This document shows positions 11,882 to 23,375 of a stretch of DNA of 64,000 nt, in pieces. Every line of letters begins with the position of its first letter. Within the stretch, counting starts at the first letter, position 1. Below the pieces are notes generated by a model that saw only the letters and a program-made list of their open reading frames with translations, ran no database searches and was not told the DNA's origin. The position numbers and the translations under genes are program-made. Source of the stretch: Phycisphaerae bacterium (GTDB taxonomy: Bacteria > Planctomycetota > Phycisphaerae > UBA1845); assembly GCA_963666835.2 (NCBI GenBank), contig CAXXGO010000006.1:544001-608000 (forward strand). Reading direction: 5' to 3'.

Positions 11882-12377
11882 GTTTTCGGCGAGGGACCAT
11901 GTCGGGAATAGACCGTGAGGAACGGTTGTAAGGAGATGCGAGGGTGCCCCATCCATCCCGGCGTTTGCGGGGCTGGGACGGTGGTGCCGACTCGCCGCCG
12001 GGATGGGTGGGGGGAAAGCGCCGGTAAGCCGGTGAGGAGTAGTGGATGAGAGAGCCATACGGTGAAGGAATAGCGAACCACACCGACCCCGAGTCATACT
12101 GTGGTGTCCGCAAGGGCATGGCGGGAGCGTTGACAGGGGCACGTGCGGGCCGGCCATTGAGCCGTGAAAGCCTTTTACTCCGGAGTGCCGACGCCGTCCC
12201 CCAAGGCGGAAGGCAACACCGGAGGGCGTCGTTAACGCGAGACGCCTTTCGGACTCCGCGCGGTCTTAGAACCCGAGCACGCACGGAAACTCCTCACGCG
12301 GAACCCGGGAGATCCCGCGTTCGGCCTCGAACATGGCATCGAGGTCCGCAGTGTGAATCCATAGGAGCACGACACTG

Positions 12378-13883
12378 ATGCACGGGCGCGGGAAGTCGGA
12401 CAGGCCCATAGTACCGAAGAAGACTGCGAACAACGGTGATCCCCCGGCGGGGAGGTCGTCCGCGGAGCAGTTGGAGGAAAGGGGCCTGGCCAAGGGCAAC
12501 TCGATTCGACACGACAGGCACCGTACGCAGAGCCGGGATCGTCTGCAAAGCGGGTTGGATCGGGTACGACAGGCAGCGGTAAAGGATAAGGATTTACAGT
12601 TCACCACGCTTTGGCACCATGTCTATGATGTCGCTCGCCTCCGGGAGGCGTACTTGAGCCTCAAGCATGCTTCGGCACCGGGGATGGACGGCATGACATG
12701 GGAGGCGTACGGCAGGGACCTAGAAGAACACCTCTTGGATCTGTCGGCACGTCTACAGCGCGGAGCGTACCGAGCGAGGCCGGTCAAGCGGGTCTACATT
12801 CCGAAACCCGATGGACGGCAGAGACCAATAGGGATTCCCGTGTTGGAAGACAAGATCGTCCAACGGGCGATGACCGATGTGCTCTCGGCTGTCTACGAGG
12901 CAGACTTCCTCGGGTTCTCCTACGGATTTCGACCAGGACGGGACGCCCATCAGGCGTTAAGTGCCCTGACTGTCGGCATCGAGAGGAAGAAGGTGAATTG
13001 GGTGCTGGATGCAGACATTCGTGGATTCTTCGATGCCATAGACCACGATTGGCTGATCAAGTTCGTCGAGCACCGGATCGCAGACCAGCGTGTCGTGCGT
13101 CACGTGAAGAAGTGGCTGAACGCCGGCGTGCTGGAGGACGGGTGTCGAAGGGACACGGAGACGGGGACGCCGCAGGGGGGCAGTATCAGCCCGCTATTGG
13201 CGAACATCTATCTCCATTACGCCTTCGACTTGTGGGCCCGCCAATGGCGACGGACGCAAGCTCACGGAGATGTGATTATCGTGAGATATGCGGACGACTT
13301 CGTGGTGGGATTTCAACAGCGAGAGGATGCCGAGCGGTTTCGGGATGAGCTGACGGATCGCCTCCGGAAGTTCAAGCTGGAGCTACATGCGGACAAGACT
13401 CGTCTGATTGAGTTCGGCCGTTTTGCGTCGACCAATCGCAAGCGAGAAGGCCGCGGCAAACCGGCGACCTTCGAGTTTCTGGGTTTTCGCCACATCTGTG
13501 GCAAGACCCGGCGTGGGAGGTTCACGGTACTACGGCAGACTGTCGCGAAACGACGGCGTGCGAAGCTCAAAGCGATTAAGCAAGAGCTTCGGCGACGTAT
13601 GCATGCCCCCGTCCGAGAGGTGGGCGCGTATTTGCGGGCGGTGGTTCGCGGGTACTATCAGTATTATGCGGTACCGCGGAACTACCCGGCCTTAACGGCA
13701 TTTCGGGATGAGGTTGTCCGTCTTTGGCGCTGGACGCTCCGGCGTCGCAGCGAGAAGACTCGGATTACCTGGGCCCGCATGAACCGTTTGGCCAAGCAGT
13801 GGATACCTGCTCCCAAAATCCTACATCCTTACCCCGACCGACACCTGGCCGTTATGACCCAAGGCAGGAGCCCAGTGCGGTAG
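12378..13883 (+). CDS. ltrA: Group II intron reverse transcriptase/maturase (no endonuclease domain)
   Basis: APGMDG, RVYIPKPDGRQRPIGIP, FSYGFRPGR, DADIRGFFD, GTPQGGSISPLLANIYL, YADD, FEFLGF, then maturase X domain. Confidence 0.95.
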   Translation: MHGRGKSDRPIVPKKTANNGDPPAGRSSAEQLEERGLAKGNSIRHDRHRTQSRDRLQSGLDRVRQAAVKDKDLQFTTLWHHVYDVARLREAYLSLKHASAPGMDGMTWEAYGRDLEEHLLDLSARLQRGAYRARPVKRVYIPKPDGRQRPIGIPVLEDKIVQRAMTDVLSAVYEADFLGFSYGFRPGRDAHQALSALTVGIERKKVNWVLDADIRGFFDAIDHDWLIKFVEHRIADQRVVRHVKKWLNAGVLEDGCRRDTETGTPQGGSISPLLANIYLHYAFDLWARQWRRTQAHGDVIIVRYADDFVVGFQQREDAERFRDELTDRLRKFKLELHADKTRLIEFGRFASTNRKREGRGKPATFEFLGFRHICGKTRRGRFTVLRQTVAKRRRAKLKAIKQELRRRMHAPVREVGAYLRAVVRGYYQYYAVPRNYPALTAFRDEVVRLWRWTLRRRSEKTRITWARMNRLAKQWIPAPKILHPYPDRHLAVMTQGRSPVR

Positions 13884-13940
13884 TCCCGCACGCTGGGATC
13901 TGTGGAGGGGGTCCCGGGTAACCGGGATTCCTACTCCGAC
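13868..13940 (+). ncRNA. Group II intron catalytic domains V and VI
   Basis: GAGCCCAGTGCGGTAGTCCCGCACGCTGGGATC (AGC triad, AC bulge), then DVI stem with bulged A and terminal AC. Confidence 0.9.
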
Positions 13941-14138
13941 ACGGACGAGGATTCGAGAGGGACTCGCGTTTCAATCAGTCCCCCACCCTTCGCCTGGAGC
14001 ATGGTACAAATGATGTAACGGCATCGATATAGGGACGTGATGCTTGCTAGGGAACAACACAGGGCGAAGGATGGGGCACCCGCGCGTTATCCAGTTGGGA
14101 AAATCTCAAGGGCACACAACTAACGGAGGTCGGGCGAA

Positions 14139-14666
14139 ATGGCTGAGAATTACCGGCGAGTTTGCGGCTGTTTAATGGCGTGCGTGGGTTTCTCCACATG
14201 TGGGTGTTTCTTTGCTTCCTACCCCGACGTGTATGATGCTTCCGACTTCGAGGAATTCGAGTTTCGCATAGAGACTGATCCGCCATGTCTGGAGGGCACC
14301 CCTCGGTCCGGCTACTCCCCACTCTGTGAAGCCACGATCAAGCGCGACGCAAGTGGTGGATATGTAGTTGTGTTGGGGGTTCAGACCGAAGAGCAATCCG
14401 ACTCGTCCTACTTACCGGAGCGCGCCCTGACAGAGCAAGAGGCGGAATACATGCTTGCGCTGTTTGACGAGCTACATATCAACCTACATCCTCAGCCGTT
14501 CTGTACGATTCCAAGACTTGGTTCCATGTCGGGCGAGACTGTCTTTCGGTGGGATGATTTTGAGCTGGTTGAGGAGGACTGCGATCGTGCGCGACTGGAC
14601 TGGGGAGACGCTCGCGATATCCACTACTTTCTGTCCAGTCTCCAACCTGATTGGGGTTGCGGGTAG
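14139..14666 (+). CDS. Hypothetical exported or lipoprotein-like protein
   Basis: RBS GGAGG, Cys-containing hydrophobic N-terminus, acidic 175-aa ORF between two REP elements. No recognised family. Confidence 0.6.
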   Translation: MAENYRRVCGCLMACVGFSTCGCFFASYPDVYDASDFEEFEFRIETDPPCLEGTPRSGYSPLCEATIKRDASGGYVVVLGVQTEEQSDSSYLPERALTEQEAEYMLALFDELHINLHPQPFCTIPRLGSMSGETVFRWDDFELVEEDCDRARLDWGDARDIHYFLSSLQPDWGCG

Positions 14667-14781
14667 GCGGAGGGGGTCGTTGCTGCGCAGGTTGAAACGG
14701 ATTAGGACTTCTTGCGGCAGGCCAGAGTATAAGCGAGCCGCCGGTGCCATCCATCCCGGCGTTTGCCGGGCTGGCGCACGT

Positions 14782-14994
14782 GGGTGCCCCATCCATCCCG
14801 GCGTCTGCCGGGCTGGGACGGTGGTACCCGCTCGCCGCCGGGATGGGTGGGGGACGGACGAGGATTCGAGAGGGACTCGCGTTTCAATCAGTCCCCCACC
14901 CTTCGCCCGGACCATCGTACCAATGATGTACCGGCGTTAGTATTGGGGATTGATGAATATTGTGGCATAACAAAGGGCGAAGAATGGGGCACCC
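14782..14994. repeat. 213-bp REP-doublet element, copy B (intact, empty intron target)
   Basis: GGGTGCCCCATCC-hairpin-GGGTGGGGG|ACGGACG...CCCACCCTTCGCC...GGCGAAGAATGGGGCACCC. Extra partial arms near 14746-14774 and 14996-15014. Confidence 0.85.
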
Positions 14995-20843: not shown

Positions 20844-22349
20844 GTGGCTGACAATGTTACCGACACCGTTCGAGTGCGGTTCGCTCCTTCTCCGACGGGT
20901 TATCTGCACATCGGCGGAGCCCGCACGGTGCTGTTCAACTGGCTGGTCGCGCGCCAAACCGGCGGGACGTTCGTCCTGCGCATAGAGGACACCGACCGGA
21001 CCCGCCACGTCGAGGACTCCGTCGGGAAGATCCTCGACGATCTGCAGTGGCTCGGCCTCAACTGGGACGAAGGACCGAACGTCGGCGGGGACTGCGGACC
21101 ATACTTCCAAAGCGAACGGCTCGACCTTTACAACAAGTACCTTCAGCAACTGCTGGAATCCGGCGAAGCGTACTATGCCCTGGAGACACCGGAGCAGCTT
21201 GAGGCCATGCGCGAACAGGCCCGGCGCGAGAAGCGCAACGTCAACTACACCCGCCCGGATCCGGTCCCGACCATTGCCCAAGGACTCGCCGCGAAGGAGC
21301 AGGGACACCCGGTAGTCATTCGGCTGAAGATGCCGGGCACGGCCATCACGGTTGTTGATGAGATCCTCGGCGAAGTGACCCTGGAGGCGGACCAACTCGA
21401 GGACTTCGTAATCCAAAAGAGCGACGGATATCCGACCTATCATTTCGCGTGTGTGGTCGATGACGCGCTGATGAGGATCACGCACGTGCTCCGCGGGCAA
21501 GAGCATCTTATGAACACGCCCAAGCACATCGCCATCCAGCGGGCGTTGGGCTTTGCCACTCCGCATTACGGTCACATGCCGGTCATCTTCAACATGGACG
21601 GCAGCAAGATGAGCAAGCGGGACAAGGAAAAGGCGCTCAAAGAAGGGCGCCAACCGCCGGAGATAGACGTACACGATTTCCGCGAGTCCGGTTACCTGCC
21701 CGAGGCTTTGTTGAACTTCATCTCGCTGTTGGGCTGGTCCACCGGCGACGATCAGGAGCAGATCGACGTAGCCGAGACCATCAAACGATTCCGCATCGAG
21801 CGGATCGGCAAAACCAACGCCAAGTTCGATCGCGAGAAGCTTCTGTCGTTCAATACGGACTGGGCGGCGCGGCTTTCATCGGAGCGACTGTTGGAGGCCT
21901 TCAAGGACTTCCTTTCTATCAACCCGAATGTTCCCGCGAATATGACCACGGCCGACGATGCGGTGCTGCCGCGCGTTCTCGAAGTGTGCGCCGGGTTCCG
22001 GACCTTTGTTGACGTTGTCAAGAAGGCCGGGTTCCTTTTCGTGGACGACGACGCTATTGAATACGATCCCAAGGCGGTCAAGAAGGTCCTGGCTAAGAAT
22101 GACGGCGAAGGTTACGCCGTGCTAGAGGCTCTGATACCGAAGCTGGAGGCCGTGACCGACTGGTCGGCCGGTCCTCTGGAGGAGCTGATCAATGGGGTTG
22201 TTGTGGAACGTCAGACCAAGCTCGGCAAGATCGCTCAACCGATTCGGGTCGCCGTCAGCGGCAGTACGATAAGCCCGTCGATCCACGACACGCTTGTTCT
22301 GCTCGGCAAGCCGCGAACGCTGACCCGACTGAAGCAGTGTATGCGCTAA
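20844..22349 (+). CDS. gltX: Glutamate--tRNA ligase
   Basis: RVRFAPSPTGYLHIGG, LRIEDTD, GPYFQSER, THVLRGQEH, KMSKR, anticodon domain. GTG start after GAGG. Confidence 0.96.
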   Translation: MADNVTDTVRVRFAPSPTGYLHIGGARTVLFNWLVARQTGGTFVLRIEDTDRTRHVEDSVGKILDDLQWLGLNWDEGPNVGGDCGPYFQSERLDLYNKYLQQLLESGEAYYALETPEQLEAMREQARREKRNVNYTRPDPVPTIAQGLAAKEQGHPVVIRLKMPGTAITVVDEILGEVTLEADQLEDFVIQKSDGYPTYHFACVVDDALMRITHVLRGQEHLMNTPKHIAIQRALGFATPHYGHMPVIFNMDGSKMSKRDKEKALKEGRQPPEIDVHDFRESGYLPEALLNFISLLGWSTGDDQEQIDVAETIKRFRIERIGKTNAKFDREKLLSFNTDWAARLSSERLLEAFKDFLSINPNVPANMTTADDAVLPRVLEVCAGFRTFVDVVKKAGFLFVDDDAIEYDPKAVKKVLAKNDGEGYAVLEALIPKLEAVTDWSAGPLEELINGVVVERQTKLGKIAQPIRVAVSGSTISPSIHDTLVLLGKPRTLTRLKQCMR

Positions 22350-22373
22350 AAAAGGGGTCGGGAGTCTTTTTTG
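22347..22373. repeat. Single arm of the AAAAAGGGGTCGGGAGTCTTTT REP family
   Basis: Matches the arm at 17365-17390 apart from one extra A. Overlaps the gltX TAA. Confidence 0.8.
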
Positions 22374-22489
22374 ACAAAACCGGGACAAAACCGGGGACGA
22401 CAAAACCGGGACAAAACCGGGGACAGTCACCTATTTACCGGGTCCTTCCGGCATGACCGTCGTATCTTCTCCGCTGACAAAACCCGGAC

Positions 22490-22928
22490 AAAACCCGGGA
22501 CAGTCACCTATTTACCGGGTCCTTTCGGCATGACCGTCGTATCTTCTCCGCTGGCGCGTGGCGTCCTAAGGCGGCCCACGGGTAGCGGGCGGAGCCGACG
22601 GTTCAGCTTATGTTCGAGCTTACTCGAAGAACGAGTCGGTGGCCAGCGGTCGTCCGCGGTGCGTGCATGTGCGCAGCTTGGCGGAGTCGTCCGGGTCGTC
22701 GGGCTCACGCAGGGTTTCCCGCCAACTCTCCGGCTTCCATTCCCTGGCCCAGGCGGTCAGATCGAGTTGGCCGCTGGGGTCCGGCTCGCCGACGTGGGCG
22801 GGCGCGCTTGACCACGAATATCGCCACGGCATGCGAGCCACCTTCGCCCGGACCGGGTTCCGCTCGCCGTACCGCAACGCCCGCCACAGGTGCAACTCGC
22901 AGATAAATAGGTGACTGTCCCCGGTTTT
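22490..22928 (-). mobile_element. 439-bp non-autonomous element E1: REP inverted ends + 3' fragment of a REP-associated tyrosine transposase (RAYT)
   Basis: Ends AAAACCSGGGACAGTCACCTATTT / AAATAGGTGACTGTCCCCGGTTTT. Interior encodes HLWRALRY(G)ERNPVRA...WSSA...GRPLA, frameshifted before SKLE...RRLRPLPVGR. Confidence 0.82.
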
Positions 22929-22933
22929 GTCCC

Positions 22934-23375
22934 TTCGTATCTCCCATGGAATCCGACGCCGATCCCTGGGCCAGGAGATTGGCTCCGGCTCTCCCGAAGC
23001 CGCTTTGTTCCGGGTGGAGATGACAGGATGTCCCACGTTCCTGGGGGACCCTCGTGTGTACATGCCCTGCTCTTAGACCCCGGTGGGATCGGATACGCCC
23101 AACCGATCAAGGCGATCCGATGCTGCCTTCCGTACGGTGTGGACGACGTCGGCTCCCACGAATAGCCCTCTTTCGAGGCTCAATCACACGGCCTGCACAC
23201 TCGCGGTCTACGCTTCGCAGTGCAGGTTACCCGTACACCACGCAAGACTCCCTTCCGGCTGTCGGTCTACTTTGCCGGGCAGGATTGAGTACCCGCCGGG
23301 TCCCGGCGAAAGGTTTCATGCTGTCATCAAGGATCCATGTCGCAATCCTCCTACCCCAGGCTTTCCGTGGCGCAC
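22934..23375 (-). mobile_element. 5' remnant (domain I to about domain II) of a second group II intron
   Basis: Minus strand starts GTGCGCCACGG at 23375. Contains GCGAAGCGTAGAC, ATTGAGCCTCGAAA, GCCGACG...GGAAGGC, GGAACGTGGGA, paralleling 12120-12310. No ORF, DV or DVI; cut at E1. Confidence 0.8.

Follow-up and report, generated by a model that had tools for sequence, protein, structure and literature searches.

How does a group II intron come to sit inside one copy of a palindromic repeat, with an intact and empty copy of the same repeat beside it? We addressed this question in a 64,000-nt stretch of a Phycisphaerae bacterium genome (GenBank assembly GCA_963666835.2, contig CAXXGO010000006.1, positions 544,001 to 608,000 of the forward strand). 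This stretch is called the window below and supplies the position numbers; positions elsewhere in the assembly carry a contig name (C1, C3, C6 or C7). The intron was placed at 12014..13940 on the + strand (1927 nt) from 12 matching genome copies, the comparison of filled and empty repeats, and Rfam matches. Its 5' end reads GAAAGCG and not GUGYG, and its 3' end is ...CUACUCCGAC. The best explanation overall, with a probability of about 0.85, is retrohoming of an endonuclease-less (En-less) IIB-like intron into an abundant repeat by RNA–DNA pairing, primed at the replication fork. This is ordinary homing onto an unusually abundant target.

Intron boundaries and copies in the genome

Removal of 12014-13940 joined 11942-12013 to 13941-14081 and gave a 213-nt repeat, which aligned without gaps to the intact copy at 14782-14994 with an identity of 185/213 overall and 124/130 in the first 130 nt. 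No target duplication was present at either junction, and at each junction the flanking bases differ, so the intron ends are unambiguous. The preliminary description of the window had proposed exactly this restored repeat without duplication, and the alignment bears it out. The same ends were fixed independently by BLAST on the whole assembly (7 contigs, 6.02 Mb), which found 12 full-length copies, all spanning 1-1927 and 99.9-100% identical: ten on C6, one on C7, and one on C1. Five of the 12 are mutually identical. The 501-aa reading frame is intact in 11/12 copies, and the C1 copy carries a 1-nt insertion.

Every copy (12/12) is flanked by GGGTGGGGG/A(C/T)NGA, where the slash marks the insertion point here and below, and nine positions upstream of that point are invariant in all 12. 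Mean flank identity in the ten copies at the main site of the repeat (site A, described below) was 79% for the upstream 72 nt and 63% for the downstream 141 nt. As the introns are near-identical and their flanks divergent, the insertions are far younger than the host repeats and arose independently; the intron burst is recent. In contigs assembled from public runs, the intron contigs had about 9-20x the depth of their flanks, as would be expected for about a dozen copies.

One X3 contig joins 12013 to 13941. Its shorter side is only 30 nt, and it possibly represents another empty repeat copy; it was rejected as a sign of an empty allele at the locus or of splicing. Two 5'-truncated intron remnants were also seen, at C7:69129-69536 (408 nt, 95% identity) and at C7:94469-94516 (48 nt), and the latter adjoins the 3' inverted repeat of a repeat copy. 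The regions C6:726679-728685 and C7:44580-46586 are identical over a 75-nt 5' flank, the intron, and the next 5 nt, and share nothing further out. This pair could go back to recombination among copies, or to identical half-elements that each received an insertion.

The target repeat

The repeat family was collected by iterated nhmmer searches on the intron-excised genome, which gave 89 matches, of which 24 were near full length and 70 lay on C6. Its consensus, about 213 nt long with GGTGCCCCATCC and GGAYGGGGCACC as terminal inverted repeats, is composed of one motif in four copies, which can form two hairpins in an inverted-doublet layout. In 21 full-length copies no flanking target duplication was visible (miniature inverted-repeat transposable elements are recognised by terminal inverted repeats plus target-site duplications). 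The exact target is present in each of the two inner motif copies, as site A on the + strand of the element and, about 47 nt further downstream, as site B on the opposite strand. In the excised genome the target sequence GGGTGGGGGAC was counted 70 times: 50 at site A, nine at site B, and 11 outside the hidden Markov model (HMM) matches; several of these 11 lie in short hairpins of the same motif. Ten introns occupy site A, one occupies site B of an element in - orientation, and one is in a short hairpin variant with a 14-bp stem. The motif is therefore shared by all 12 copies, of which the HMM places 11 in the repeat family and the last is in the short hairpin variant, and none was found in an unrelated target.

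In the window, the 5' part of the filled repeat (11942..12013, + strand) comprises the terminal inverted repeat GGGTGCCCCATCC and hairpin I, with arms at 11947-11963 and 11996-12012. The DNA fold of the upstream 70 nt reached -28.8 kcal/mol. The last bases before the intron are a candidate intron-binding site 2 (IBS2, GAUGGG, + strand, 12002-12007) and IBS1 (UGGGGG, + strand, 12008-12013). The site A stem can be extended to 17 bp (11947-11963 with 11996-12012), which places IBS1 and IBS2 in its 3' arm and the intron 1 nt past it, and the stem is not followed by a T run. The site had been described as lying directly after the hairpin: the intron does adjoin the stem, and what changes is that the stem can reach 17 bp and takes IBS1 and IBS2 into its 3' arm. 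The 3' part of the filled repeat (13941..14081, + strand) opens with the 3' exon, whose first bases are ACGGACG, and carries the 3' inverted repeat GGATGGGGCACCC. It contains the mirror site B (GTCCCCCACCC, 13978-13988), at which the target is on the - strand and is empty. The intact copy (14782..14994, + strand) has an empty site A between 14853 and 14854 and a site B at 14891-14901.

The repeat had been called a repetitive extragenic palindromic (REP) element. High-copy intergenic palindromic doublets were indeed found, and the 89 matches agree with the abundant multicopy target that had been postulated. The element itself is a four-motif unit of about 213 nt, and of nine PF01797 (Y1-transposase) matches in the genome none had a repeat match within 3 kb. 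As no gene for a REP-associated tyrosine transposase (RAYT) lies beside the repeats, REP is a loose label here. The repeat was not found by DNA search in 29/30 related genomes, and the remaining genome gave three weak 62-nt matches. The nearest intron relatives in these 30 genomes are at most 75% identical. Repeat matches cluster at C6 0-1.2 Mb, with 50 of 82 C6 matches within 400-1200 kb, and eight intron copies lie at C6 320-800 kb, the region in which the cumulative GC skew is flat. C6 0-1.2 Mb may be a plasticity zone near the origin.

Ribozyme fold and exon-binding sites

The Rfam model RF02005 (group-II-D1D4-6) matched 12049-12273 with 169.4 bits, against a gathering score of 49. Exon-binding site 1 (EBS1) is the sequence CCCCCA at 12198..12203 (+ strand), in the terminal loop 12195-12205 of the hairpin 12187-12194/12206-12214. 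This hairpin was recovered both by the RF02005 alignment and by RNAalifold on 30 distinct relatives, with a loop of 9-11 nt, and compensatory changes support its stem: the pair 12192-12208 is CG in 23 sequences, GC in four, and UA in three. Pairing was evaluated in 28 distinct related introns, drawn from 54 loci fetched with the protein, from the relatives' genomes, and from one plasmid. The EBS1 loop paired with the last six bases of its own 5' exon at 6/6 positions in 20/28 introns, at 5/6 in seven, and at 4/6 in one. When introns and exons were mismatched, 49/752 combinations (6.5%) reached 6/6. The difference between true and mismatched pairings establishes the CCCCCA loop as EBS1, as had been proposed from its complementarity to the repeat end, and it shows that the relatives have been retargeted to other sequences.

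The candidate EBS3 is U12266 (+ strand), of IIB type, which would pair with the A at position +1 of the 3' exon. An A is found there in 12/12 copies, and the U12266 column was complementary to exon +1 in 14/16 relatives with both ends placeable. The candidate EBS2, CCUUUU at 12171..12176 (+ strand), was assigned tentatively within a 14-nt bulge (12167-12180) on the 5' side of the domain I d stem, where the relatives L009, L030, and L055 have 6-7-bp exon pairings adjoining IBS1. It pairs at 6/6 positions with GAAGGG (site B and the short hairpin) and at 5/6 with RRUGGG (site A). Against positions -7 to -12 it forms five or six of six pairs at all ten filled C6 sites; at the empty + strand sites downstream of dnaA it forms four pairs at ten sites, five at eight, and six at two. 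If functional, the candidate EBS2 and EBS3 would widen recognition to about 13 nt. For domain I, whose folding had been suggested as a check on all three exon-binding sites, the fold gave an EBS1 backed by compensatory changes, with EBS2 and EBS3 as candidates.

When sites were sorted post hoc by positions -10 to -12, one class had 10 filled and 5 empty sites and the other 0 filled and 15 empty (p = 0.0002). As the filled sites themselves served to define the classes, this sorting is only a hint. One C6 + strand repeat subfamily, ...CCGGCATGGGTGGGGG/ACGGAT with C at -12, was occupied at 0/5 sites downstream of dnaA. Its emptiness fits a mismatch with the candidate EBS2, and this effect is confounded by subfamily.

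Domain V (13868..13900, + strand) was placed by alignment to RF00029; it contains the AGC triad, and its terminal loop is the 5-nt UAGUC at 13881-13885. Domain VI (13905..13937, + strand), placed by the same alignment and by reading of the sequence, contains a bulged candidate branch-point A at 13933. The GAAAGCG start was also found in the relatives L002, L020, L061, L064, and L067, and it is 2 nt longer than GUGCG starts. With boundaries placed by EBS1-IBS1 pairing, 5' ends within the RF02005 clade vary among GUGCG, GAGCG, GAAAGCG, NNAUGCG, GUAGCG, and GAACAG. Ribozyme domains, a reverse transcriptase (RT) with a YADD motif, precise insertion, and EBS-IBS complementarity were all found; on these features the element is a mobile group II intron that is predicted to self-splice and that would act as a lariat.

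Strand bias and replication

On C6, the 10-mer GGGTGGGGGA occurs at 10 filled and 26 empty sites on the + strand and at 0 filled and 32 empty sites on the - strand (Fisher p = 0.0011). Genome-wide it has 90 sites, 12 of them filled. The asymmetry was also observed for the 17-mer CCGGRATGGGTGGGGG/A, of which 8/11 + strand sites and 0/14 - strand sites are filled (Fisher p = 0.00015). Of the three + strand 17-mer sites that are empty, two are upstream of dnaA (C6:228812-229291), and the third is the window's own empty copy at 14782..14994. The best + strand sites downstream of dnaA are therefore nearly saturated (8/9 filled), and the window holds the only exact 17-mer site among them that is still empty. 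One element in - orientation is filled at its mirror site on the + strand, so strand matters more than the choice of site A or B.

The cumulative GC skew of C6 has its minimum near 320 kb and then rises to the contig end. The strand asymmetry fits reverse splicing into the lagging-strand template with priming derived from the fork. Reviews give this route for endonuclease-less introns (PMC4424553). In the mechanism that we propose, the intron RNA would recognise about 13 nt of DNA, 5'-RRWGGG-UGGGGG/A-3', by base pairing with EBS1 CCCCCA, the candidate EBS2 CCUUUU, and the candidate EBS3 U. Each repeat of about 213 nt would offer the target twice, once per strand, and two targets in each of about 90 intergenic repeats would amount to many neutral homing sites. 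The RNA would reverse splice into the strand acting as lagging-strand template and would use replication-fork DNA as primer, so that only the sites of one strand would be filled in each replichore. On C3, the cumulative skew has a terminus-like maximum near 360 kb.

Encoded protein and intron class

The intron encodes a 501-aa protein (12378..13883, + strand) with an RT domain, a YADD motif at 13287-13298, and a short C-terminal region. Pfam matched it to RVT_1 only (E = 1.6e-40) and detected no endonuclease domain; the RT domain is followed by about 130 aa. In phmmer comparisons it matched the LtrA, GsI-IIC, and T.el RTs at about 1e-41 to 1e-43, and the value for the GsI-IIC RT (2.3e-43) puts it no closer to IIC than to IIA or IIB RTs.

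The intron is not of class C, on four grounds. It has a 6-nt EBS1 and an EBS2 candidate, compared with a shortened EBS1 and no EBS2 in class C. Its 5' end GAAAGCGCCGGUAAGCC does not match the class C consensus 5' GUNYGCCNRGCAUGG (PMC4028801). Its RT is no nearer to IIC RTs than to IIA or IIB RTs. Its Rfam type differs from those of the labelled reference introns (coordinates from supplementary data of PMC3552965): the class D reference matched RF01999, Ni.ha.I1 (g3, former class F) matched RF02003, and Sr.me.I2 (g1) matched none. The nine invariant positions upstream of the site and the absence of a T run after the stem also depart from class C, which has little sequence specificity. An earlier guess that the RT is non-class-C, which had been left unverified, now agrees with the 5' boundary, the 6-nt EBS1, and the RT matches.

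The nearest labelled RT was that of the class D reference (176 bits, 33% protein identity). The RF02005 type is common to this intron, a Burkholderia plasmid intron, and a Sinorhizobium medicae plasmid intron. Class E features were matched by the En-less RT-X protein and by the 5-nt domain V loop UAGUC. In class IIE, alpha-prime lies at the tip of the DId3 stem-loop, and DId3 has an extra bulge. A second hairpin with a conserved loop (12219-12252) follows the EBS1 hairpin here, together with a 14-nt bulge, both seen in the RNAalifold fold. Introns of the IIE and IIF classes have a domain V loop of 5 nt (PMC3753933). RF02005-type introns are common on S. meliloti accessory plasmids, and the catalogued class E intron S.me.I4 resides on such plasmids (PMC5894124). 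The intron, which is IIB-like, is thus probably of class E.

Alternative explanations

Several observations weigh against the reading of an En-less IIB-like intron that homes by pairing at the fork. The alignment of domains V and VI to RF00029 is full length (13866-13940), and its 36.9 bits are below the gathering score of 40. The 5' end is GAAAG in 12/12 copies and does not conform to the canonical GUGYG. The class E assignment is indirect, through the Rfam type and the domain V loop. The EBS2 signal across the lineage is weak, with runs of at least 6 bp in 8/28 true pairs and 82/748 mismatched pairs, and the site A pairing with the candidate EBS2 has a U·U mismatch at -10. The GC skew of C6 is flat at 0-1 Mb, the home of eight copies, and for this reason the replichore there was assigned from the position of dnaA alone; a second DnaA-family gene is present at C3:138441-138905. 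Filled and empty sites also belong to repeat subfamilies, so that the occupancy comparisons are not independent.

The strand asymmetry might instead be set by transcription, with insertions made or kept only where a co-oriented upstream gene reads through the repeat. By a crude measure, 9/12 copies have a co-oriented stop-to-stop open reading frame (ORF) of at least 150 aa just upstream. The other 3/12 have none, long ORFs are divided about 50:50 between the C6 strands, and transcription alone would not give 10/10 insertions on the + strand; we regard this explanation as very unlikely. Passive spread, in which an intron-bearing repeat was duplicated or transposed and the pattern came from element mobility, could draw on the pair C6:726754 and C7:44585, with its identical 75-nt 5' flank, intron, and 5 nt. 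It is hardly credible in view of introns that are 99.9-100% identical within flanking element halves that are 79% and 63% identical. Three different site types are in use, and the strand asymmetry holds despite mixed element orientation, including the - orientation element filled at its mirror + strand site.

Structure could also guide the insertion. The ribonucleoprotein would then recognise the extruded repeat hairpin, as class C introns do at terminators and attC sites, and pairing would fine-tune the position. The geometry is suggestive: a 17-bp stem ends 1 nt before 10/12 insertions and a 14-bp stem 1 nt before another, and the relative L061 directly follows a small hairpin whose 3' arm is the L061 IBS1. 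However, IBS1 and IBS2 are in the stem, where the hairpin would hide rather than present them, and the site B insertion at C6:1555347 has no upstream hairpin covering IBS1, which leaves recognition of the hairpin itself unsupported. The 5' flanks of the relatives, inspected by eye, are mostly varied sequence with no obvious hairpin, and one is apparently within an RT-like gene. The 11-mer motif also has about seven copies that belong to no repeat or hairpin, and all of these are empty, but at the overall fill rate of 19% a result of 0/7 would arise by chance in about 23% of cases, and several of these seven are on the non-permissive strand. We consider structural guidance unlikely. A wider proposal would combine structure with pairing: En-less IIE-type introns may have specialised repeatedly on hairpin repeats of the REP or REPIN (REP doublet) kind, with single-strandedness or extrusion of the repeat on the lagging-strand template giving access, EBS1 and EBS2 mimicking the 5' arm of the hairpin, and guides and repeat variants co-evolving. 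We hold this wider proposal only tentatively, as doubtful.

Comparison with known systems

RmInt1 prefers the lagging strand. This class D, IIB-like intron of S. meliloti resembles the present one in its RT-maturase protein without an endonuclease domain, its recognition of the target through EBS1, EBS2, and EBS3, and its dependence on the replication fork (PMC4424553). Its target is multicopy as well, in that case ISRm2011-2 (PMC4424553; Table S1 of PMC3552965). The two differ in ribozyme type (RF02005 here, RF01999 for the class D reference), in the protein (33% identity to that reference), in the 5' end GAAAG, and in the target, which is here a non-coding palindromic repeat and not a transposase gene. 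The present case is retrohoming of the RmInt1 kind, onto a non-coding palindromic repeat instead of an insertion sequence (IS).

The class E (IIE) introns Cl.be.I2 and S.me.I4 share with it a compact IIB-like ribozyme, an En-less protein, a 5-nt domain V loop, and EBS1 and EBS2 in domain I d (PMC3753933). In vitro, introns of class IIE splice by hydrolysis. Class C introns (B.h.I1, S.ma.I2) likewise insert beside a DNA stem-loop, have no endonuclease, and use intergenic multicopy sites. They differ in their low sequence specificity, short EBS1, absence of EBS2, and IBS downstream of the stem, whereas the present intron has a 6-nt EBS1, an EBS2 candidate, and IBS within the stem. Three target specificities are distinguished for group II introns, namely homing sites, terminators, and attC sites (PMC4424553), and the present case falls under homing sites. 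According to PMC7923331, upstream structure has not been reported to play a role for IIB introns, and the present data likewise establish none.

The REP-targeting ISs ISPpu9, ISPpu10, and IS1397 also land in intergenic palindromic repeats (PMC1525189), and they are mostly DNA transposons. A group II intron of Pseudomonas putida KT2440 has 2/9 copies associated with REP elements (PMC1525189), compared with 12/12 copies in the motif and RNA guidance in the present intron. This 2/9 association was the sole related item in a full-text literature search, which found no paper on systematic homing of group II introns into such repeats; most subscription journals lie outside that search, so the result is not proof that the phenomenon is unpublished.

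Other introns of this type

A second, different RF02005-type 5' part was seen in the window at 23068-23288 (- strand, 131 bits). The corresponding intron, at about 21000-23330 on the - strand, has its frame in pieces of 147, 102, 109, and 337 aa and, with no domain V-VI match at E <= 0.1, appears to be decayed. Among the relatives, L062 (G013:C25 1206-1829) has about 400 nt of 5' ribozyme adjoining about 205 nt of the 3' end and appears to be an ORF-less deletion derivative. The 5' exon of L067 (G014:C357) resembles, by eye, part of another RT gene, which suggests an intron inside the ORF of another intron. In the plasmid collection, 993 records match the RF02005 5' ribozyme, 734 of them from Klebsiella, and a near-identical RF02005-type intron is common to 106 Sinorhizobium and 22 Rhizobium plasmid records.

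Implications

The locus provides an unusually clean natural record of retrohoming, in which filled and empty sites of a young burst stand side by side. It shows how an En-less intron can multiply without harm to genes by using a neutral multicopy repeat. The terms adapted for the intron and safe haven for the repeat, used in the preliminary description, would be in keeping with this. As a compact IIB-like intron with a 5' end other than GUGYG, it is also a possible test case for retargeting. If the wider proposal of repeated specialisation were true, REP- and REPIN-like repeats would join homing sites, terminators, and attC sites as a fourth natural class of target.

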